Shown here in pieces: positions 2,449 through 34,673 of a DNA stretch of 64,000 nt. The DNA is taken from the sequence record NC_054918.1. One strand, 5' to 3'. The DNA comes from Escherichia phage vB_EcoM_G4498. The position numbers were made by a program, and so were the translations under genes. Under the pieces are notes generated by a model. The model was not told where the DNA came from, ran no database searches, and was given only the letters and a program-made list of their open reading frames with translations. Numbering within the stretch: position 1 is the first letter of the stretch; each line of letters starts with the position of its first letter.

Positions 2449-4267
2449 ACTGGCTCATCCATTCTTTACGAAGGTCAGCATTATCTCCCATGAGCATTTC
2501 AAAAAGCTCTTTCCAGTTCTCAGGAAGTTTAACAACATCATATACTGGATTTTGAATCATCTCACGATATTCAGATTTTTCCAAAGAGCCAAGTCCTTTA
2601 ATATAACGGATGCTATGTTTAGGTAGAGCATCTTTAGCACTCTCATATTCAGCGACTGTATAAAACCATTCTTGTTTTTTACCAATCTGTGCGATGATTA
2701 CAGGAGTTTTGACAAAGCGAATTCGTCCTTGCTCAAACAGTTCTGGCCAATTACTAAAAAATCCAAGCAGAGAAGGATAAATGCTTCCTAGACCATCATG
2801 GTCAGCATCAGTCATAATAGCAATATTATGATAATTCAAGTTTTCAGCTTTTTCACCGAGAACTAATCCAGTGATTGCGCAAATATCAAACAGTTCTTTG
2901 TTTTTAAGCATGTCAGCATATGACATACCCCAACTGTTGAGAACTTTACCACGTAATGGATAACCACCGTGAAGTTCTTTATCACGAACATCAATAAGAT
3001 ATCCGATAGCCGAATCACCCTCAGTCAAGAAAAGAGTAGTATCAGCATCTTTACCACAAAGATTCGCTTTAATATGTTTATGAACCTTAGCTTTAGAAGC
3101 CTTTTTAGCTGCTTTAGTTTCTGCTGCTTTTTCTGCCGCCAATTTACGAGCCAAAGCAGCTTCAATAATCGGCATTAGAATTGCTTCATTATTTAGAATA
3201 GCGCGTGAAATCTTTTTAGCATCAAGTTGAATATGACTACGAATTTCGCCAAATGGAGAAGTCAAACGCTCTTTAGTTTGAGAATCAAATCGCATGTTTT
3301 TCATATCACGAACAAACATAACGATAGTCAAACATTCTTTAACACGCGCTTTAGTTACATCAATTTTGAACTTACGTTTGATTTGTGGAATAAGGTCTTC
3401 ACAAATATCATCCATAACACAGTCAATGTGATGGCCACCATTCTTAGTGTGAATGTTATTGACGTATGTTAATTGACGAAAACCATCCGGTGAACGACCA
3501 ACCGCAATAGAACAATTTTCTTGTTCTTGAACAATAGCATGCTCATCATATTGGCGTGCATATTTCTTAAAATTGCCCTGAACCTTTTTACCATTAAAGG
3601 TAAATTGAATATCAGGATAAACAACAGCAAGTGTCTGGAGACGATCTAATGTAATGTCAAGATAAACTTGAGATAATTCATTAGTTTCAAATGACATAAA
3701 ATCTGGAATGAAAGTAACACGAGTTCCTTTCCATTTTCCAGGAATAGTTTCCCATGATTTATTTTCCATGCCATTTGAACAACGAACTACAATATTATTT
3801 TGACCATCGCCAGTTTCACCGACAAACATCACAGAAAAAATGTTAGTTAAACTAGAACCAACACCATTCATACCACCGGTGACGCGTTCTTTATCATCAC
3901 CAAAGTTACCACCTGCTTTTGGAATAGTCCACGCAGCAACTGGACCAGGAATTTCTTCACCGGTAGGTGTTTTGACCATCGCTTGTGGAATACCACGACC
4001 GTTATCTTCAACTGTTACTTGATTGTTTTTAATAGTAACATTAATTTTATTTGCGAATTTAAACTTAGTACGAATACCTTCATCTACTGAGTTATCGATA
4101 ATTTCATCAATAAGCTTAACAAGACCAGGTACATACTGAACACTTTCCCATTTACCAAACAGAAAGCGCTCATGCATTTCATTAGCGGAAGAGCCAATGT
4201 ACATGCCGCTACGCTTTTTGATATGTTCAATATCGCTCAGAATTTTAATTTCATTCTTAATCATCAC
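2447..4267 (-). CDS. 39: DNA topoisomerase II large (ATPase, GyrB-like) subunit, unsplit 606-aa form
   Basis: 606-aa ORF with GHKL ATPase region (EDNGRGIP, GGMNGVGSS) and TOPRIM-like region (LFLTEGDSA, DADHDG); single continuous frame. Confidence 0.9.
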   Translation of the reverse strand: MMIKNEIKILSDIEHIKKRSGMYIGSSANEMHERFLFGKWESVQYVPGLVKLIDEIIDNSVDEGIRTKFKFANKINVTIKNNQVTVEDNGRGIPQAMVKTPTGEEIPGPVAAWTIPKAGGNFGDDKERVTGGMNGVGSSLTNIFSVMFVGETGDGQNNIVVRCSNGMENKSWETIPGKWKGTRVTFIPDFMSFETNELSQVYLDITLDRLQTLAVVYPDIQFTFNGKKVQGNFKKYARQYDEHAIVQEQENCSIAVGRSPDGFRQLTYVNNIHTKNGGHHIDCVMDDICEDLIPQIKRKFKIDVTKARVKECLTIVMFVRDMKNMRFDSQTKERLTSPFGEIRSHIQLDAKKISRAILNNEAILMPIIEAALARKLAAEKAAETKAAKKASKAKVHKHIKANLCGKDADTTLFLTEGDSAIGYLIDVRDKELHGGYPLRGKVLNSWGMSYADMLKNKELFDICAITGLVLGEKAENLNYHNIAIMTDADHDGLGSIYPSLLGFFSNWPELFEQGRIRFVKTPVIIAQIGKKQEWFYTVAEYESAKDALPKHSIRYIKGLGSLEKSEYREMIQNPVYDVVKLPENWKELFEMLMGDNADLRKEWMSQ

Positions 4268-4289
4268 TTATCCTCGTTTGGTTTCGGGA

Positions 4290-4316
4290 ATATTATACTC
4301 CGGTAATCATAAAGCT
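4290..4316 (-). promoter_or_regulatory. putative MotA-dependent middle promoter for gene 39
   Basis: Minus strand: aGCTTTA (MotA-box-like) - 12 bp - TATAAT inside GGAGTATAATAT; sits just downstream of a terminator hairpin. Confidence 0.45.
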
Positions 4317-4335
4317 AAAGGCCCGAAGGCCTTTT
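4317..4335 (-). terminator. GC hairpin with CGAA/UUCG loop between 39.1 and 39
   Basis: aaaGGCCcgaaGGCCttt, flanked by a U-run on the minus-strand transcript. Confidence 0.55.
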
Positions 4336-4603
4336 ATTTAAAACGAATAGTCGAATCCTTGAAGAATAGTCCAGAACATACTGTTCCTTCTACTTTCTGC
4401 CCAGTAGGTCCAATAGCACGAAATCCAGTATGTTGGAAATCATTTTCAGAACAACCGAACCAGTTATATCCAGTGATTTCAATATTAGTAAAACCGCTTG
4501 AAGACAAAACTTTGGTTGCATTATCAGCATCAGTACATCCTACTAAAGACACTGCTAATACTAATGCCGCGATAGAACGATTAATATATTTCATAATTTT
4601 CAC
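4334..4603 (-). CDS. small lipoprotein (39.1 position)
   Basis: 89 aa; N-terminal signal peptide with lipobox LVGC. Confidence 0.55.
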   Translation of the reverse strand: MKIMKYINRSIAALVLAVSLVGCTDADNATKVLSSSGFTNIEITGYNWFGCSENDFQHTGFRAIGPTGQKVEGTVCSGLFFKDSTIRFK

Positions 4604-4971
4604 TTAAATTTAATGGCTTGAAGAAGACTAATAATTCTCAAGCGACTTCCTTCATCTTTAACTGTAAAAGAAAGAGGGTCACCAGATTTCATAGTGATAG
4701 TGCATTCAAAAGCAAAACCTTCGGGAACTTCTTCGAAGAAGTCAAATTCTTCATCATAAATTAGAACATTACTCTGAAAACTGTGAAGAATTTTTCCGTC
4801 ATTTCCAGATGCTGTACTAATCATTGTAACATTATTACCTTTCATATCTTCAACGATAAATTCGCTTGTAGATATTACAGCATTAATAGAACCATTCCTA
4901 TAAATAGCAGAAAATAGATATTTCTTTTCTTCACCTTCGCGAATGCGATATTTCTTACCGATTTTAAACAT
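4600..4971 (-). CDS. hypothetical protein (39.2 position)
   Basis: 123-aa ORF, start overlaps upstream stop; synteny. Confidence 0.5.
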   Translation of the reverse strand: MFKIGKKYRIREGEEKKYLFSAIYRNGSINAVISTSEFIVEDMKGNNVTMISTASGNDGKILHSFQSNVLIYDEEFDFFEEVPEGFAFECTITMKSGDPLSFTVKDEGSRLRIISLLQAIKFK

Positions 4972-5152
4972 AATTACCCTTTAAGTAAGTCGTAAAATCC
5001 GCCATTCACATGCTTAGGGGCAGAGACTAACCGAATAGCAATCCGATGACAATCAGGACATACATCAGTATCTCTTTCAGAAATTTTCTTGATTTTTTCG
5101 TATTCTTTTGCGCAGTCTTTTGATTGACATTTATAATCATAAAGCGGCATAA

Positions 5153-5566
5153 TTATTCCTTAAAGTGAGCTTTCAACATCTGATACAAGGACCATGCCTG
5201 TTCATCATTTTCAATAGTAACTTTCATTACAGGGAATTTAGATTGATCAGTTATCGGTGCAGATTCTTCCTGCTCTTCAGCTGCCTGGTATGGATTTTCA
5301 ACTTCATTAAAGAATTCAGCTTCATTCGATGAAAGCCAAATAAAATCTTCATCCAAAATATCTTTACCAGAAGATAGTACTAAATTTCCAGCAAATGACA
5401 TAATTTTAATAGGACGCCCAAGAGCATCCACATCTAAAATTTTAAAAGGATGCATACCTAAACGGCGTGCATAGATTCCGTTATCAGTATGGTCTTTAAT
5501 AAAATTTTCTTGAGCTTGTTTATTTTTAAATTGATACCATTTATTAACTTCAAATTTAATAGCCAT
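5153..5566 (-). CDS. hypothetical protein (goF/comC-alpha position)
   Basis: 137-aa ORF; size and position resemble T4 goF, sequence not verified. Confidence 0.45.
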
Positions 5567-5781: not shown

Positions 5782-5880
5782 TACAATTTCCTCGTTAATT
5801 GAACATTGGAGCGATGCGTTTCAGAAGAGTAGCAGCACCTTTGGCAAATTTTCCATTTTATTCTCCAAGTTATTTTCTGT

Positions 5881-5923
5881 ATCAGTAGTTGATATTGATA
5901 TAGTACCATAATCAACTACTGAT
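5881..5923. repeat. 13-bp perfect inverted repeat (atcagtagttgat / atcaactactgat) bracketing a promoter -10-like core
   Basis: Arms at 5881-5893 and 5911-5923 with a 17-nt spacer containing tatagtacca; lies in a 170-nt ORF-free gap. Confidence 0.6.
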
Positions 5924-5952
5924 GTATATAGTTTTATGAAAAATTTTAAACT

Positions 5953-6444
5953 TTATGCATAGCGAGCTTTGCTGTAGTGTTTAATCCAACTTTCAGGAAT
6001 GACTTTGTATGTTCCTAAAAATACCGCGTTGTATAACTTAACGCCATCTTCTACCCATTGATCAGTAATGTATGCACACATAGCGCGAGTACGGTTAACA
6101 ACACCTTCCTCACCTTCAGTAAATTCAAACTCATAAGGAGCAACGAACTTGATAGCTTGACCGAGTTTCCACTTAAAGTCTACACCTACATGCGAAGTAT
6201 CAATCGTTTCAATTCCTTTAGCGGGAACAGCTTTCAAAAACGCAGGCTCAAGAAATTTCCATCGAACATAACCAAACTGAGGTTTAGACATTCCATCTTT
6301 AGGAATGATACGCACTTTTACTTCAGAATCTTCATCTTTAACACCATGTTTAAGCTGAATGCTTACGACTTCAACCAATTTTCCTGCTGCTTTAGAACGG
6401 GATTTATCAGATACACGAGCAATTTCACCGATATTAATATTCAT
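5953..6444 (-). CDS. motB: MotB-like protein
   Basis: 163 aa (T4 MotB is 162 aa) at the syntenic position; sequence identity not verified. Confidence 0.5.
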   Translation of the reverse strand: MNINIGEIARVSDKSRSKAAGKLVEVVSIQLKHGVKDEDSEVKVRIIPKDGMSKPQFGYVRWKFLEPAFLKAVPAKGIETIDTSHVGVDFKWKLGQAIKFVAPYEFEFTEGEEGVVNRTRAMCAYITDQWVEDGVKLYNAVFLGTYKVIPESWIKHYSKARYA

Positions 6445-15800: not shown

Positions 15801-16451
15801 TTATTTTTCCTTTCTTATGAAGTTTTCTATCATATGTCTATAGCAGATATTAGGATAACCTGCCTTGACAGCTATTTTATTAAATTTTGTGCGCTTAGGT
15901 CTATTATTATAAACCCATAATTCATAAAGCGCATCATAACTATTCCATATTTCTCCTCGCCTAGGATTTGGTAAACCATATCGAGGTGAATTTTTACCGC
16001 TAAATCTTCCTTTTCGGGCTTTACTCATATTAGCCTTGGCTTCATCGGATATAATTTTACCTTTATGAGCTAGACGCATTTTGGCTTTAGTTTCTTCTGG
16101 GGTCTTTTTGCCTTTAATCCATGACGGCTTGCCATATCTAGGATTATTTTCACCCGAGAAAAGAACAGAGTTTTGGATTTTAAGGGTTTCTATTAATCTA
16201 CTTGTTAATTTAACACCTTTATTATATCGCATTAAATTTACAGCATAATGCAATCCTCTCACATCTGGATATATTTTAGTTAATAATCTATGAGCTATAA
16301 AATGCTCACGCGCAGTTAACTCAACAAGATTGTTTTTGTCATCTGCTCCTCCTATACATCTAGGAATTATATGATGGCGTTCTTTATATCCGCCAAGATG
16401 CCGGCATTTAGCTTTTGTAATTAAAGCCGAGTAAATTTTTTGGTAATTCAC
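15801..16451 (-). CDS. HNH homing-endonuclease-like protein
   Basis: 216 aa; HHIIPRCIGGADDKNNLVELTAREHFIAH HNH motif; NUMOD-like GENNPRYGKP / GKNSPRYG repeats; GTG start with SD AAAGGA. Confidence 0.75.
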   Translation of the reverse strand: MNYQKIYSALITKAKCRHLGGYKERHHIIPRCIGGADDKNNLVELTAREHFIAHRLLTKIYPDVRGLHYAVNLMRYNKGVKLTSRLIETLKIQNSVLFSGENNPRYGKPSWIKGKKTPEETKAKMRLAHKGKIISDEAKANMSKARKGRFSGKNSPRYGLPNPRRGEIWNSYDALYELWVYNNRPKRTKFNKIAVKAGYPNICYRHMIENFIRKEK

Positions 16452-16521: not shown

Positions 16522-16722
16522 ATGGTACAAAAATTAATGGCACTTGTTAATGCCATAAAAGGTAATAAGAAACGTATAGCTTTTACTATTTCTGCTATGG
16601 TAGGAATTTTACTCTGGAACTTTATTTTATCACCTGTTGCAATTGCACATGGTATTAATATTCCAGTAGTTACTCTTGATACATTCGTAGATTTAGCATT
16701 TGCTTTAGTTGGGTTAATTTAA
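16522..16722 (+). CDS. small hydrophobic (membrane) protein, plus strand
   Basis: 66 aa; strong SD AAGGAGGA 6 nt upstream; hydrophobic segments; convergent with gene 61. Confidence 0.5.
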   Translation: MVQKLMALVNAIKGNKKRIAFTISAMVGILLWNFILSPVAIAHGINIPVVTLDTFVDLAFALVGLI

Positions 16723-22735: not shown

Positions 22736-23578
22736 TTAATCAACTGCTATTGGATGAATAGCATTAAACTTATGAAATGCTTCTGATTTTTCTTTACGCG
22801 AAACGCACATGCGAAGAACCTTTAATGGCTCGTCTTCTTCACCCAACGATTTTCGTTTTTCAATATTAGAAGTTTTCCAACGAGCTTGCTCTGGAAACTC
22901 TCTATTGATTTGCTCAAGCGCTCTATTATGTTTAGAATTACTACGAATTGAACTGCACCCTCCAGGAGCTTGTGCTTTTCCAGATACAACCAGATATTTG
23001 AACAAGGCCAAATGCGGATAACCTTGATTAATTAAATTGAGAAATGCATACATATCTTCGCACAAATCAATTTTTCCATACCCAATTTGTTCTGTCGTAA
23101 GTTTTCCAAGGTCATACCATGTATTCGTGAATCCATATGAATTTTCACGATAATTACCCCAAGATGAAGTAATTTTAAAAATTGGTAGGCGAGCATGACC
23201 GTGATAATACCCACAATCCATGGCATCTTCGACGTATTGAATCAATTCATAGAACTGTTCACGAGTCAATTGATTGACTTTATCCACACAACGACGATCA
23301 TCTCTTTTTCGCATTGAACTCATACGAATAGTAGTATCATCGTCAATCATCCAGATTCGTTGACCTGCATACATATCAGTAATTGCTTTACGAGTACCGG
23401 CAATTCCATTAACATCATCAGGAATAGTTACAATTTTAGCTTTAGACCCATAGGCATCATAATAAGCTTTTTCTTCATGTTCACGTACTACGATATGAGG
23501 TTCATAATCAGTCGGAAACATATCAAGGGCAGAAACTGCCCCTACACGTTGATAGCTCGGAATTACGAATTGAATCAT
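22736..23578 (-). CDS. glycosyltransferase at the b-gt locus (GT-A-like, DxD); candidate b-glucosyl-HMC-a-glucosyltransferase
   Basis: 280 aa; WMIDDDTT DxD motif; unlike the 351-aa T4 b-gt. Confidence 0.55.
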   Translation of the reverse strand: MIQFVIPSYQRVGAVSALDMFPTDYEPHIVVREHEEKAYYDAYGSKAKIVTIPDDVNGIAGTRKAITDMYAGQRIWMIDDDTTIRMSSMRKRDDRRCVDKVNQLTREQFYELIQYVEDAMDCGYYHGHARLPIFKITSSWGNYRENSYGFTNTWYDLGKLTTEQIGYGKIDLCEDMYAFLNLINQGYPHLALFKYLVVSGKAQAPGGCSSIRSNSKHNRALEQINREFPEQARWKTSNIEKRKSLGEEDEPLKVLRMCVSRKEKSEAFHKFNAIHPIAVD

Positions 23579-24216
23579 TTAAGTGCCTTACATTTGTCAA
23601 AATGGTATCTTGTCATATTTGGCCCACGTCCTTTTAGTCCGCAATGCGGACATATTTTTTCTATCAAATTATGAGGTTTTCCTTTACGATTTTTAGACAT
23701 CGTTTCTTTAATTATTTTAGCTTTTTCTACGCCAAAAATTTCTTCATAAGTTTTACCAGAATTTTCCTTGGCTCGATTTATAATTCCATATGCCTGCTCA
23801 TTTTTACCATACATTGGATTACCTTCGCCTTTCATTCTTTTAGAATGATCAGGACGCTTGATTCCACGAAAGGCATTTCCGCACTTATATCTTTCTTCTG
23901 GAGATAGTTTTTTACCGTACATTCCATTTAATTTGCCTGGAAAACTTCCTCCCCATGCTTCATTCTTTAAATTATATGAATCCGGACAATTAGCAGCATC
24001 TAAACAAGTTAAAATAATTTCTTCAACCTGTCTAAACATTGGTCCTTCATATAATATTTCTTTATTAAAGGATTTTATTCCATATTTCTTTTTAGCATGT
24101 TGCCAAACTACACCCGAACCATCATAATTCGGGTTGTGACCATCATGACTTCCTATATACCACTTTTTAGTTTTAGGATGTTTATACTTATAAACATGCG
24201 GCACATTTACTTCCAT
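23575..24216 (-). CDS. GIY-YIG homing-endonuclease-like protein (Seg-like)
   Basis: 213 aa; N-terminal VYKYKHPKTKKWYIGS...YDGSG; NUMOD-like GKLNGMYGKK / GNPMYGK; C-terminal CPHCG...HFDKC zinc finger. Confidence 0.7.
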   Translation of the reverse strand: MEVNVPHVYKYKHPKTKKWYIGSHDGHNPNYDGSGVVWQHAKKKYGIKSFNKEILYEGPMFRQVEEIILTCLDAANCPDSYNLKNEAWGGSFPGKLNGMYGKKLSPEERYKCGNAFRGIKRPDHSKRMKGEGNPMYGKNEQAYGIINRAKENSGKTYEEIFGVEKAKIIKETMSKNRKGKPHNLIEKICPHCGLKGRGPNMTRYHFDKCKALK

Positions 24217-32032: not shown

Positions 32033-32224
32033 TTAGTCATAATAATCAGTAACAGTCCAAGCTTCATTTCTATTGGACATTATTTTTGTATATTCTGCTT
32101 TAAATGCATTCCTAAGCATAGATTCAGTAACTATATGCTCTTCATTAGAAAAATTATTTCTCAGAATATATCGTTTTATTTCAGGAATAGTTAATAGATG
32201 CTGTCCAGTTGAATATTCTGCCAC
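32033..32224 (-). CDS. small hypothetical protein (45.2 position)
   Basis: 63-aa ORF. Confidence 0.5.
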   Translation of the reverse strand: MAEYSTGQHLLTIPEIKRYILRNNFSNEEHIVTESMLRNAFKAEYTKIMSNRNEAWTVTDYYD

Positions 32225-32234
32225 AGTTCCTCCG

Positions 32235-32242
32235 TATAAATA
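32235..32242 (+). promoter_or_regulatory. late promoter TATAAATA driving the plus-strand HNH gene
   Basis: Exact TATAAATA 34 nt upstream of ATG 32276; SD AAGGA. Confidence 0.6.
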
Positions 32243-32275
32243 TGTTTATCACTCGCTGTATCAAAAGGATATGTT

Positions 32276-32992
32276 ATGAATTATAAACTAATTTATGAAA
32301 AGTTAATCTCTAATGCTAAATCTCGAAAACTTGATTGCTATACTGAATCTCATCACATTATACCACGCTGTTTAAACGGTAGTGATGATGCTTCAAACTT
32401 AGTAGATTTAACGCCAGAAGAGCACTATGTAGCTCATCAACTTTTAGTAAAAATTTATCCTTCTGAACCAAAATTAGTCTATGCTGCTAACATGATGACA
32501 GTTTCCACGAAATACGCTAAACGCAACAATAAAACTTTCGGTTGGATTCGTCGTAAACTCTGGGAAATAGAAAAGAACAAAGAATTCTCCCAGGAGACAC
32601 GAAAGAAAATGTCTGATGCAGTAGCTAATAAAGCAAGACTAACTTGTCCTCATTGCGGTAAGTCTGGATTAAGCGGGAATATGAATCGTTGGCATTTTGA
32701 TAACTGTCCAAATCACCCTAATCCTAAAGTTAGACCACCATTGTCTAAAGAACACAGAAATAATATCTCAAACGGGCTTAAAGCAATCGTTCTTGAAGAA
32801 ACATCCTGCGAATTCTGTGGAATGATAGGCAAGAAATGCGTTATCGCAGCGCATAGAAATTTCTGCAAGAAAAATCCAAATGGACGCAAGAAAACTGAAA
32901 AGACTGGTACTTGCGTCCATTGTGGTAAAGTTACCACTTTCGGAAATTTATCAAGATGGCATAATGATAACTGTAAATATAAACCTAGCTAA
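32276..32992 (+). CDS. HNH homing-endonuclease-like protein, plus strand
   Basis: 238 aa; HHIIPRCLNGSDDASNLVDLTPEEHYVAH; repeated CxxCG...W-H-x-D-N-C zinc-finger modules; N-terminal ~70 aa paralogous to the 15801-16451 HNH protein. Confidence 0.75.
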   Translation: MNYKLIYEKLISNAKSRKLDCYTESHHIIPRCLNGSDDASNLVDLTPEEHYVAHQLLVKIYPSEPKLVYAANMMTVSTKYAKRNNKTFGWIRRKLWEIEKNKEFSQETRKKMSDAVANKARLTCPHCGKSGLSGNMNRWHFDNCPNHPNPKVRPPLSKEHRNNISNGLKAIVLEETSCEFCGMIGKKCVIAAHRNFCKKNPNGRKKTEKTGTCVHCGKVTTFGNLSRWHNDNCKYKPS

Positions 32993-34673
32993 TCTTAGCT
33001 AAACTAAATCTACCAACTTTTTCCATCTGAATATGCTGACCATATTCTTGTGGGTCATGGTCTTTATGCGAAATTATGAAGAAGTTGGTATCCTTCAAAC
33101 CATCTAAAATTTTAGCTACATTTTTAATACCTTCAGCATCAAATGCACCGTCATATACTTCATCAAGAAATAAACAGCTTATTTTAACACCTGAAACTTT
33201 TTCAGCAATATCACGCCAAGTAAATAAAAGAGCAATATCAATTCGCGCTTTTTCACCTTGACTGAATGAAGCATAACTAAAATCTTCACGACCACGGGAT
33301 TTAATTGTCTCATTAAATTCTTCATCTAATGTAAACACATAATCCGCTTCCATTATTTTAAGATAATGGTTAATCTGCTTATTAAATAATGGAATGTACT
33401 TTTTAATAATAGCACCTTTAATACCAGAATCTTTGAGCATATCAGTCAAAATTCCTCGGTGGTATTTTTCCATTACTAAATTAGTTTTTGTCTTAACAAT
33501 TTTATCAAGTTCTTCTTGAAGCAGTGCTATTTCATCAGCATGGTCAATAAACTCAGAAGATGCTTTTTCTATAGCTGCTTTAACTTTTTTAGCTTTATCT
33601 ACTGTCGTGATTAGAGATTGCTTTTTATTGCGAATATCATTTGCCAACGACTGCTGGGTTTTAATATTATCTCGGTATTCATCAACAAGAACTTTTAAAT
33701 TATCACGATGTGTTGAAAGCTGTTCAAACGAATGCGTGCATTCAGAAACTTTATCTTTAATTTTAGAAACAACTTTATCACCGGAACTTAATTGCGACAA
33801 ACAGGTTGGACATAATCCACCTTCGTGATACATATTAATGACTTTATTATATGAGTCAATTTTTGATTTAATTAAAACTGCTTCTTGACCGATTTTATTA
33901 AATGCATCAGTCGGGTCTTCATCCAAAACAATATTAACTAATCTTTCATTAGCTTCTTCTATTTCCGATTTTAGCGTTCTAGCTTCTTTTGCCAAATCAT
34001 CGTACATATTTTGCAGACGAGTAAGATTGTCACCCGTTAATTTTTTCTGGCGTTCAACGTTATCATTATATATTTTAATTTGTTGGATAATACTATCTTT
34101 TTTAACATCAAGCACTTGGTTTTGTGAATTTAATTCACGTATTAGTGCTTTATTAAGCTTATCCATTTCAGCTAATGTTCCTACCTCAAGCAGGTCTTCC
34201 ACAAGCTTTCTTCGCGCAGGGGTCGACAAACCCATGAAAGGGGTATACCCTGCTGTACCAAGGACAACAATCTGCTTGAAACTGGCATATGACATTCCGA
34301 TAAGCTGTTCAAATTCTGCTTGGAAATCTTTACTGCTGGCAGATTCATTAAGACGTGTACCGTTAACGGTGATTTCGAAAACGTTTGGTTTTTGTCCTCT
34401 TTTGATATAGTACTTTTTCTCATCATATTCCATCCACAGTTCAACTAAAAGTTCTTTCTTATTTGTGCTGTTTATTAATTGACCTTTCTTTACATCACGA
34501 AATGGTTTGCCAAAAAGCCCAAATGTGATGGCTTCTAACATAGTAGACTTACCACCGCCATTTCGGCCAGTAATAAGAGTTTTTTGAACCTTATCTAGTT
34601 GAATGTCAATAGGATTTCCACCTACTGACATTATATTTTGATACCTAACTCGGTTTAGTTTAAAATTCTTCAC
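32985..34673 (-). CDS. 46: recombination endonuclease subunit (Rad50/SbcC-like)
   Basis: 562 aa; Walker A GRNGGGKST, central coiled coil with CPTC zinc hook, signature FSQGEK, Walker B LFLDE. Confidence 0.9.
   Translation of the reverse strand: MKNFKLNRVRYQNIMSVGGNPIDIQLDKVQKTLITGRNGGGKSTMLEAITFGLFGKPFRDVKKGQLINSTNKKELLVELWMEYDEKKYYIKRGQKPNVFEITVNGTRLNESASSKDFQAEFEQLIGMSYASFKQIVVLGTAGYTPFMGLSTPARRKLVEDLLEVGTLAEMDKLNKALIRELNSQNQVLDVKKDSIIQQIKIYNDNVERQKKLTGDNLTRLQNMYDDLAKEARTLKSEIEEANERLVNIVLDEDPTDAFNKIGQEAVLIKSKIDSYNKVINMYHEGGLCPTCLSQLSSGDKVVSKIKDKVSECTHSFEQLSTHRDNLKVLVDEYRDNIKTQQSLANDIRNKKQSLITTVDKAKKVKAAIEKASSEFIDHADEIALLQEELDKIVKTKTNLVMEKYHRGILTDMLKDSGIKGAIIKKYIPLFNKQINHYLKIMEADYVFTLDEEFNETIKSRGREDFSYASFSQGEKARIDIALLFTWRDIAEKVSGVKISCLFLDEVYDGAFDAEGIKNVAKILDGLKDTNFFIISHKDHDPQEYGQHIQMEKVGRFSLAKIS

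Follow-up and report, generated by a model that had tools for sequence, protein, structure and literature searches.

Why does a gene on the plus strand, with a putative late promoter of its own, sit inside a minus-strand block between gene 45.2 and the recombination gene 46 of Escherichia phage vB_EcoM_G4498? We address this question in a stretch of 64,000 nucleotides from record NC_054918.1 (hereafter, the window), beginning from a first-pass annotation of the same DNA. The identity of the gene as a homing endonuclease is already known from public records: it is named homing endonuclease in RefSeq, and its ortholog in the RB32 record (DQ904452), RB32ORF054w, is labelled “similar to mobB”. The gene is thus a typical case, in good condition, of something familiar, and a search of the accessible literature returned no paper on this endonuclease gene or on its cleavage, nicking or homing. 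Our analysis makes it probable that the locus carries a freestanding HNH homing endonuclease gene of the Mob class, brought in as a cassette of late promoter, leader and open reading frame (ORF) that separates 45.2 from the gene 46 stop (Table 1); homing nuclease activity is predicted for the 238-aa product.

The importance of the finding is modest, and no principle is changed by it. The locus offers a clean natural example of a freestanding homing endonuclease reshaping its landing site, with a middle promoter apparently lost and both the start of 45.2 and the C-terminus of gp46 altered, and of a cassette that would take a diverged part of an essential recombination gene with it from phage to phage and from genus to genus. 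It also helps in reading the mosaicism of the many Tequatrovirus genomes sequenced for phage therapy, and offers a Mob-type enzyme with a predicted three-finger DNA-binding array, whose target should be easily mappable.

Table 1. Features of the 45.2–46 locus, in window coordinates
Feature	Position	Strand	Remarks
Gene 45.2	32033..32224	-	Left neighbour of cassette
Cassette vs T4-type empty site	32219..32998	+	~780 bp inserted
Putative T4-type late promoter TATAAATA	32235..32242	+	Exact match; conserved left edge of cassette
5' untranslated leader	32243..32275	+	Conserved motif TATC..TCGCTGTATCAAA
Shine-Dalgarno AAGGA	32265..32269	+	In leader of endonuclease ORF
Endonuclease ORF	32276..32992	+	238 aa, ATG start; between 45.2 and gene 46
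Predicted HNH (beta-beta-alpha-metal) nuclease domain	32276..32500	+	Residues 1 to ~75; H26, H27, N41, H50, H54
Predicted zinc finger 1	32645..32707	+	CX2CX12HX3C; C124, C127, H140, C144
Candidate MotA-dependent middle promoter	32760..32787	-	ATTGCTTTA-N13-TATTAT, antisense inside endonuclease gene
Predicted zinc finger 2	32807..32866	+	Variant CX2CX11HX3C; C178, C181, H193, C197
Predicted zinc finger 3	32912..32974	+	CX2CX12HX3C; C213, C216, H229, C233
Gene 46	32985..34673	-	Rad50/SbcC-like recombination nuclease subunit; convergent with endonuclease gene
Cassette-linked gene 46 3' allele	32999..33264	-	Encodes Walker B, D-loop, H-loop and C-terminal tail of gp46

The cassette and its remodelled neighbours

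Identity to T4 ends at 32218 and returns near 32999–33003. Between these points the cassette supplants ~66 bp of T4-type genomes, namely the 55-bp 45.2–46 intergenic region and the last codons of gene 46, for a net gain of ~714 bp (the locus spans 2001 bp here vs 1287 bp in empty-site genomes). Position 32225, given as the start by the first-pass annotation, marks no feature boundary: the insertion begins at 32219, followed by the promoter from 32235 and the ORF from 32276. The 8-nt overlap that the annotation reported between the 3' end of the ORF and the stop of gene 46 is exact (32985–32992), because the ORF ends at 32992 on the plus strand and the convergent gene 46, on the minus strand, ends at 32985; the orthologous neighbour of gene 46 type has Pfam SMC_N and AAA_23 matches. 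The description of the gene as one of only two on the plus strand agrees with a 99% identical relative, which has two plus-strand coding sequences in 42 kb. Within the window, the plus-strand ORFs matching phage families are only the endonuclease ORF and a 66-aa ORF at 16522–16722, and the other long plus-strand ORFs comprise two that belong to no family and two antisense to known genes.

The exact late promoter motif noted ahead of the gene is indeed there, and TATAAATA has its last base 34 nt upstream of the first base of the start codon. A single TATAAATA alone has no significance in the AT-rich DNA of the window. Across the window, however, it is rarer than expected, with four copies vs 10.8, and three of the four sit 25–33 nt ahead of ORF starts, soc among them. 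It is also present 39–53 nt upstream in all six other orthologous cassettes of >55% identity that were examined, with unrelated sequence further upstream, and orthologs at 44% identity have CTAAATA in its place. With motif, suitable distance and conservation all found together, the copy ahead of the endonuclease gene has the attributes of a T4 late promoter and is probably one. A sigma-70 promoter scan of the region returned 3 promoter-like sites, below the shuffle mean of 5.8, and a scan of the region for intrinsic terminators returned zero.

Eight orthologous leaders show no variation at the TATC and TATCAA blocks. A conserved RNA structure masking the ribosome binding site, of the kind known for I-TevI and mobE, was considered and is unsupported: RNAalifold gave zero pairs, and of seven leaders folded singly, four form a weak hairpin whose loop holds the Shine-Dalgarno, with z-scores from +0.9 to −1.9. 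An autorepressor operator like that of I-TevI was likewise rejected, the best local alignment of the promoter and leader with the T4 empty site and gene 46 scoring 9 against a shuffle mean of 9.8.

Both neighbours bear the marks of the insertion. Gene 45.2 begins GTG-Ala-Glu here vs ATG-Glu at empty sites (coding sequences of 192 nt in filled-site and 189 nt in empty-site records), and its GGAGG Shine-Dalgarno directly adjoins the putative late promoter of the opposite strand. At the other end, gp46 finishes in ...RFSLAKIS here vs ...RFTVMV in T4. T4-type empty sites have TATGCTTTA-N11-TATAAT immediately upstream of 45.2, which is missing here, and the insertion thus appears to have deleted the MotA middle promoter of 45.2 as well as remodelled the start of 45.2 and the C-terminus of gp46. 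The candidate antisense MotA promoter inside the endonuclease gene could replace the deleted one; 6/6 filled-site Tequatroviruses examined keep its MotA box and its -10 hexamer intact (one has a substitution in the spacer), and it is absent from orthologs of other genera.

In its orientation and transcription the gene departs from mobE, which is without its own promoter, co-oriented with nrdA/nrdB and reliant on upstream transcription (PMC2790892), whereas the gene here runs against its neighbours, behind a putative late promoter of its own. An antisense orientation to the surrounding transcription units is also known for segD, a freestanding GIY-YIG endonuclease gene of T4 (PMC2988022); segD belongs to another nuclease family and has no identifiable promoter of its own, unlike the exact and conserved late promoter motif found here.

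Domains of the encoded protein

The 238-aa protein matches PHROG 655 (‘homing endonuclease’) with an E value of 9e-69, and its N-terminal part is 36% identical to RB3 MobE over 141 aa (E 2e-23). The five residues listed for the predicted HNH domain are invariant in 22 homologs. In a profile search, residues 19–54 aligned to the HNH domains of two solved structures, a group II intron maturase (6me0; E 0.0015) and McrA (6ghc; E 0.0021); a search of the PDB with the single sequence gave no significant match, HNH domains being reached by profile only. The AF2 model places strands at 24–27 and 42–45, followed by a helix at 47–60, with pLDDT >90. Searches of Pfam and NCBIfam returned nothing past cut-off, the best being HNH (PF01844; 14.8 bits vs a gathering score of 21.4, E 0.032), Lar_restr_allev (15.7 bits) and IscB (23 bits vs a cut-off of 175). 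Since a paralog elsewhere in the window, which carries NUMOD3 repeats, also falls short of the Pfam HNH model (18.8 bits), this model covers the Mob subfamily poorly, and the shortfall does not speak against the fold.

That paralog, at 15801–16451, had been proposed from the N-terminal sequences, and the relationship holds (BLASTP, 36% over 174 aa, E 3e-30), with 35 identities in the first 60 residues and 40 in the first 70 (57%); the paralog itself is encoded on the minus strand, with genes 56 and 61 on either side. Both proteins have a Mob-like HNH and both fall in PHROG 655. They differ in that the paralog has NUMOD3 repeats vs zinc fingers here, and no exact late promoter lies ahead of it. 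NUMOD3 likewise takes the place of the fingers in many of 2320 homologs. With MobA–E of T4, the endonuclease shares a homologous N-terminal HNH, a freestanding position between conserved genes and a variable presence among T-even phages, but with MobE there is no significant similarity past about residue 125, the insertion sites differ, and the presumed target is gene 46 here vs nrdB for MobE. Together, these comparisons support the assignment of the protein to the Mob-class HNH homing endonuclease family.

The C-terminus was expected to differ from the paralog and to carry repeated Cys/His modules of a WH-DNC form. It does differ, and three such modules are present, but the WH(F/N)DNC form occurs only in fingers 1 and 3; finger 2 reads CEFCG...AAHRNFC, with an 11-residue spacer. 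Among the 22 homologs, H140 and C144 of finger 1 are invariant and C124 and C127 are kept in at least 90%, and all ligands of finger 3 are invariant. The AF2 model of finger 1 is a hairpin plus helix. No curated Pfam model for the CX2CX12HX3C finger scored above cut-off in the copy searched. Similarity to I-TevIII, from the nrdB intron of phage RB3, is more direct: its finger 2 is 50% identical to finger 1 (E 4e-6), and fingers 2 and 3 taken together align with its pair of fingers (37% identity over 65 aa, E 8e-8). The CX2CX12-13HX3C fingers of I-TevIII bind zinc and are required for DNA binding (PMC1865063). Judged by motif and homology, the three fingers here would form a DNA-binding domain of the I-TevIII type. 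I-TevIII too combines an N-terminal HNH with C-terminal fingers of this motif. It is intron-encoded with two fingers, whereas the gene here is freestanding with three, the middle one of shorter spacing, and BLASTP finds no similarity between the HNH domains, indicating a shared module and not an ortholog.

Distribution of the cassette and the linked gene 46 allele

When the 45.2–46 junction was compared across T-even genomes, as the first-pass annotation had suggested, presence of the cassette proved polymorphic among near-identical genomes. The full 2-kb query was matched in 58 records, and ~448 Tequatrovirus records matched it as two pieces spanning 1287 bp; in all, we find the cassette in ~57 of ~506 Tequatrovirus records (~11%) and an empty site in ~449, T4 included. 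Universal presence, which had been named as evidence against homing, is thus far from the case, with ~89% of Tequatrovirus records without the gene. The junction was also read as empty in the T4-type phages RB59, UFV13, PST, AR1, HMD-9 and SholemSchwarzbard. In other T4-like lineages, the orthologs (44–67% identity) whose surroundings were read all occupy the same 45.2|46 junction; they come from Bp7 (Dhakavirus), Yersinia phage MHG19, Klebsiella phage Roth19 and metagenomic or unclassified T4-like contigs, and gene 46 (an SbcC-like or exonuclease subunit) is annotated under most full-length three-finger matches listed in a spread sample. Among Klebsiella phages, the site is filled in Roth19 and empty in M198. 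A scan of IMG/VR found no relatives above 90% identity, its matches being confined to distant orthologs and to homologs of the N-terminal part.

Genomes with the cassette also carry a diverged gene 46 allele, the divergence taking up the last ~200–270 nt of that gene. Divergence from T4 is densest at 33078–33205, with 74.7% identity over a 146-nt core, and amounts to 29–34 differences per 200 nt at 33100–33299, the flanks being ordinary beyond ~33300. Columns in which filled and empty genomes have no allele in common lie in gene 46, at 32999–33176, in 22 of 41 cases, and there are zero cassette-linked differences in the flank left of 32218. Matches to the linked block at 95% identity or more occur in 58 records, the cassette being present in 57 of them, and the next best full-length match is at 76.4%. 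In KMB22 the block is present and the site is empty, so block and cassette are separable; a partial conversion tract and ordinary recombination fit this genome equally well. Roth19 and M198 diverge over the same gene 46 segment (nt 1501–1690), and because this pair of Klebsiella phages repeats the linked-allele pattern, the target is likely to lie within the 3' segment of gene 46. A third gene 46 haplotype in cassette-free genomes means that the segment is variable, perhaps for reasons unrelated to the endonuclease. We also looked for a donor lineage of the linked block; it is in part 83–87% identical to Klebsiella-phage alleles, with no clear donor.

We infer that 32999–33264 is a co-conversion tract and that it probably contains the target, a placement made by linkage only, which short distance and suppressed recombination in 75%-identical DNA could mimic. 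MobE nicks nrdB ~120 nt inside the neighbouring gene, where mobE+ and mobE− phages are polymorphic (PMC2790892), and the neighbouring gene here is likewise polymorphic between carriers and non-carriers. The co-conversion or linked flanking polymorphism expected of the Mob class is seen here as a pattern in a population, an indirect form of evidence, and not as the outcome of a cross.

How such a cassette might spread can be pictured from these observations. Late in infection, polymerase dependent on gp55, gp33 and gp45 would start a few bases past TATAAATA, and the 238-aa protein would be made. The three I-TevIII-type CCHC fingers may bind a long site, with the N-terminal HNH nicking or cutting nearby; MobE nicks, and I-TevIII, acting as a dimer, makes a double-strand break. 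The most likely target would be the 3' ~250 nt of gene 46 (Walker B to H-loop) in co-infecting cassette-free phages, the cassette-bearing genome being protected by its own ~25%-diverged allele of the segment. Repair of the break by the phage recombination machinery, with the cassette genome as template, would then pass the cassette, together with the gene 46 tail, to the recipient by copying. The earlier reading of the gene as an intronless homing element is in keeping with all of this, as the polymorphism, the Mob family membership, the conserved promoter, purifying selection and the linked gene 46 tract all fit it.

Other readings of the locus

An active enzyme might instead target the empty 45.2–46 intergenic site, in which case the gene 46 block would have come along as a passenger when the cassette was first acquired across genera. 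All 55 bp of the intergenic region, and the tail of gene 46 with them, are replaced by the insertion; this alone would confer immunity, as for intron-encoded enzymes, and the empty-site intergenic sequence is nearly invariant in the six T4-type genomes examined. Between the genera that carry orthologs, however, the intergenic sequence is not conserved, whereas the coding sequence of gene 46 is, and the linked tract is strictly one-sided. The freestanding T4 enzymes MobE and SegG, moreover, cut inside the neighbouring conserved gene (PMC2790892), and we regard an intergenic target as unlikely, though worth keeping in mind.

A second possibility is that the endonuclease is decayed or inactive and persists through linkage to essential neighbours and their remodelled ends. 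Because the cassette supplies the translation start region of 45.2 and the C-terminal codons of gp46, its clean deletion would be difficult; T4 keeps defunct endonucleases such as I-TevIII (PMC2790892), and a cassette found in only ~11% of Tequatrovirus records would suit a relic. The gene itself reads otherwise. Its dN/dS is 0.05–0.06 within Tequatrovirus and 0.16–0.23 between genera, values that indicate purifying selection, and catalytic and zinc-ligand residues are kept across the 22 homologs. Among the filled-site Tequatrovirus annotations that were read, the ORF is always given as 714–717 nt, and the promoter is conserved. Against an active homing enzyme, we find decay very improbable.

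Least credible of all is domestication, with the protein working as a nuclease or DNA-binding factor alongside gp46/gp47 or in another late function, its adjacency being functional and unrelated to homing: the spot beside gene 46 is constant in at least five lineages, purifying selection is strong, and an HNH protein of homing-like architecture can be integral, as is the terminase-associated HNH of HK97 (PMC10448857), but ~89% of close genomes, T4 included, recombine normally without the gene, which lies on the opposite strand with a late promoter while genes 46/47 belong to an early-region minus-strand block, and its Mob family, its modular homing-endonuclease architecture and the linked diverged gene 46 tract all speak for homing.

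Retaining the active homing endonuclease with a target in gene 46, one may go further and ask if the endonuclease lineage drives long-term allele exchange in the catalytic core of the Rad50-like gp46, always moving with the segment from Walker B to the C-terminus across genera. We hold this wider proposal to be speculative and rather improbable. If it were true, the diverged gp46 haplotypes (cassette-linked, T4-type, and the type of UFV13 and M198) would record an arms race between endonuclease and target, and the moved gp46 tail might be functionally distinct cargo, not a neutral passenger.

An insertion polymorphism between genes 45.2 and 46

The window is a Tequatrovirus (T4-like) segment, here 99% identical to vB_EcoM-fFiEco06, JE01 and others, and the neighbours of its endonuclease gene, rpbA and 45.2 to the left and gene 46 to the right, all lie on the minus strand. 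The ORF, its promoter, its position between 45.2 and gene 46 and the 8-nt overlap are all as the first-pass annotation had described them; position 32225, which it had used as a boundary, marks none, and alignment places the left junction exactly at the 45.2 start codon.

Features of the endonuclease locus and related elements (window coordinates; residues for the fingers)
Feature	Position	Strand	Remark
Endonuclease ORF	32276-32992	+	238 aa
Late promoter TATAAATA	32235-32242	+	exact match
Leader	32243-32275		
Shine-Dalgarno AAGGA	32265-32269	+	6 nt 5' of endonuclease ATG
Overlap of ORF (last 8 nt) with gene 46 end	32985-32992		
Left junction	32218/32219		by alignment
Right junction	near 32999-33003		
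Candidate MotA-like site ATTGCTTTA-N13-TATTAT	32760-32787	-	antisense within endonuclease gene
HNH + NUMOD3 paralog	15801-16451	-	between genes 56 and 61
GIY-YIG/Seg-like homing endonuclease gene	23575-24216	-	213 aa; PHROG 314, E 2e-31
Finger 1	C124-x2-C-x12-H-x3-C144		C-terminal to two helices
Finger 2	C178-x2-C-x11-H-x3-C197		
Finger 3	C213-x2-C-x12-H-x3-C233		

A 2-kb query centred on the endonuclease gene matched 604 phage records. The comparison of presence and absence proposed earlier for this junction shows it to be polymorphic: 58 records carry the query end to end, and in approximately 448 other Tequatrovirus records it is split in two pieces, spanning 1287 bp vs 2001 bp. With the cassette alone (promoter, leader and ORF), 57 records were found at 96.6% identity or more, which include several RefSeq/GenBank duplicates and correspond to roughly 46 distinct genomes. 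In six genomes read at this site (T4-type RB59, UFV13, PST, AR1, HMD-9 and SholemSchwarzbard), 45.2 is followed directly by gene 46.

The insertion replaces ~66 bp of T4 with ~780 bp and remodels both neighbours, such that 45.2 starts GTG-Ala-Glu here vs ATG-Glu at the empty site, and gp46 ends ...RFSLAKIS rather than ...RFTVMV. It also removes a canonical MotA middle promoter, TATGCTTTA-N11-TATAAT, which in empty-site genomes immediately precedes 45.2 (2138-2165 in the RB59 locus). The candidate antisense MotA-like site has its MotA box and -10 hexamer unchanged in six of six filled-site Tequatroviruses examined (with a spacer substitution in one), and is absent from orthologs in other genera.

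Full-length orthologs with 58-67% identity occupy the same junction, convergent with gene 46, in Bp7 (Dhakavirus), Yersinia phage MHG19, Klebsiella phage Roth19, an IMG/VR contig and Logan/NCBI contigs, and a group at 44% identity has the same position. When the finger domain was used as a tblastn query, 172 records gave a full-length match; for most of the listed spread sample, the annotated features that the match overlaps include gene 46. Since Roth19 is filled and Klebsiella phage M198 has an empty site, the polymorphism recurs in a second genus. Next to the endonuclease gene of Bp7, gene 46 is annotated as two separate CDS of 183 and 1239 nt (locus 3947-5447), pointing to a frameshift or a mistake in the sequence of that record. 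Further annotated homing endonuclease genes lie between 46 and 46.1 in RB68 (locus 5818-6444), and between 45 and rpbA in SholemSchwarzbard (locus 1611-2498); the 45-47 region is a hot spot of homing endonuclease insertion.

The linked gene 46 block and the probable target

Comparing six cassette-bearing with six empty-site Tequatrovirus loci, we found no cassette-linked differences in the left flank (45.2, rpbA, 45). In gene 46, there are 22 cassette-linked columns at 32999-33176, and 29-34 differences per 200 nt at 33100-33299; past ~33300, the flanks shuffle independently of the cassette. A 146-nt core of this linked block is present at 97% identity or more in 58 records, the next full-length match being 76.4%, and 57 of the 58 are precisely the cassette carriers. 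The sole exception, KMB22 (locus 1422-1860), is a natural recombinant: it has the linked block, but its site is empty and its gene 46 tail is of the T4 type. The crossover falls in a 40-nt island (~33036-33077 in the window) that codes for the H-loop and is almost invariant across the alleles. The same segment of gene 46 differs between Roth19 and M198, with 95-100% identity across nt 1141-1500 and 62-73% across nt 1501-1680. In the Rad50-like ATPase, this part of the gene corresponds to the Walker B motif, the D-loop and the H-loop. A third haplotype of this 3' segment is seen in cassette-free UFV13 and SholemSchwarzbard (window-equivalent 33046-33178), and its protein motif DSATD..G.KAIS resembles M198 and a locus with a 59%-identical endonuclease (L096).

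The diverged gene 46 segment closely parallels the situation at mobE. The nick that MobE makes in the adjacent nrdB falls ~120 nt into that gene; carriers and non-carriers differ in this region, which is next to codons for critical residues (PMC2790892). Because the divergence is linked and one-sided, and given this parallel, we infer a probable target in the last ~250 nt of gene 46, where a diverged allele would protect a cassette carrier from cutting. A target in the intergenic 45.2-46 sequence, destroyed by the insertion itself, is less likely because that sequence is not conserved across genera having the same insertion point. We consider it rather improbable that this endonuclease lineage is a systematic vehicle for moving the catalytic tail of the Rad50 homolog from phage to phage, with that tail being either linked cargo or the target in an arms race.

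Nuclease domain, zinc fingers and class

The top family match of the endonuclease is PHROG 655 "homing endonuclease" (E 9e-69), and the Pfam HNH model matched only below the cut-off. In the N-terminal ~75 residues, H26, H27, N41 and H50 are invariant across 22 homologs; RB3 MobE matches this domain at 36% identity over 141 aa (E 2e-23), and the family profile aligns the HNH motif with the HNH domains of two proteins of solved structure, a group II intron maturase and McrA (E ~0.002). Paralogy to the window's other HNH protein, claimed previously, holds (57% identity over 70 aa), and the strand of that gene has to be corrected to minus. At its position, the 99%-related fFiEco06 has dam and another ORF instead; tblastn across the 64-kb window found no dam homolog.

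Each of the three fingers is a short hairpin plus helix in the AF2 model (mean pLDDT 86). I-TevIII from phage RB3 has two fingers, to which fingers 2 and 3 align at 37% identity (65 aa, E 8e-8); finger 1 aligns with I-TevIII finger 2 (E 4e-6). The I-TevIII CX2CX12-13HX3C fingers bind one zinc ion apiece, and mutation of either lowers DNA binding and cleavage (PMC1865063). Similarity between the HNH domains of the endonuclease and I-TevIII was not detectable, and the protein therefore joins a Mob-type nuclease domain to I-TevIII-type fingers. The Mob-class architecture has already been described as "HNH plus C-terminal zinc finger" (PMC10448857). The GIY-YIG protein also ends in the same CX2CX12HX3C finger, CPHCGLKGRGPNMTRYHFDKC, so one DNA-binding module is common to two nuclease families in a single genome, an illustration of how modules shuffle between families of endonucleases.

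Homology places the gene in the Mob class as a predicted homing endonuclease, as do its architecture, its behaviour in genomes and the polymorphism linked to it; the first-pass reading of an intronless homing element is supported. It differs from the characterised mobE of T4 in its antisense orientation to the genes beside it, in having a late promoter of its own, and in its three-finger array. The gene is already known: it carries annotations (RB32ORF054w in RB32; in many genomes RefSeq calls it "homing endonuclease"), and elements of this kind are familiar; a 2010 review of T4-related genomes noted two mob-like HNH genes in RB32 (PMC2993671), and our literature search found no experimental paper on it. 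Our contribution is incremental. It consists of the exact positions of both junctions, the loss of the middle promoter, the gene 46 allele linked to the cassette together with its one natural recombinant, and site fidelity across genera.

Maintenance and predicted late expression

Each of the seven distinct cassettes with more than 55% identity has the motif TATAAATA 39-53 nt 5' of the ATG; the 44%-identity group has CTAAATA in its place, and upstream sequence beyond it is unrelated between lineages. The predicted late promoter is part of the cassette. Exact copies are depleted in the window (four, at 4899, 15243, 32235 and 57661, vs 10.8 expected), and three of the four lie 25-33 nt 5' of an ORF start, namely the late gene soc, the endonuclease gene and a 70-aa minus-strand ORF near 57.6 kb. 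Promoter conservation, together with this depletion and placement, thus makes late expression of the endonuclease gene a well-supported prediction. The leader of the 70-aa ORF starts GGTTTATC, resembling that of the endonuclease gene. In the latter, the motif TATC..TCGCTGTATCAAA is conserved in orthologs, more so than coding sequence; we found no operator-like similarity of the leader to the target region, and no significant RNA structure in the leaders of the window and orthologs.

The dN/dS of the endonuclease is 0.05-0.06 against RB32 and RB68, and 0.16-0.23 against orthologs from other genera where dS is still estimable. These low values indicate that the protein is maintained, and count against a decaying relic. 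In phage Ac3 (OK040907; locus ~1280-2499), ~25% of bases from the endonuclease gene into gene 46 differ from relatives. Within the ORF, 178 of 717 bases are changed, nearly all to G or C, at apparent third codon positions on both strands, and the finger-domain protein is still 97.5% identical. This has the look of recoding or of an artefact of assembly, not of natural divergence.
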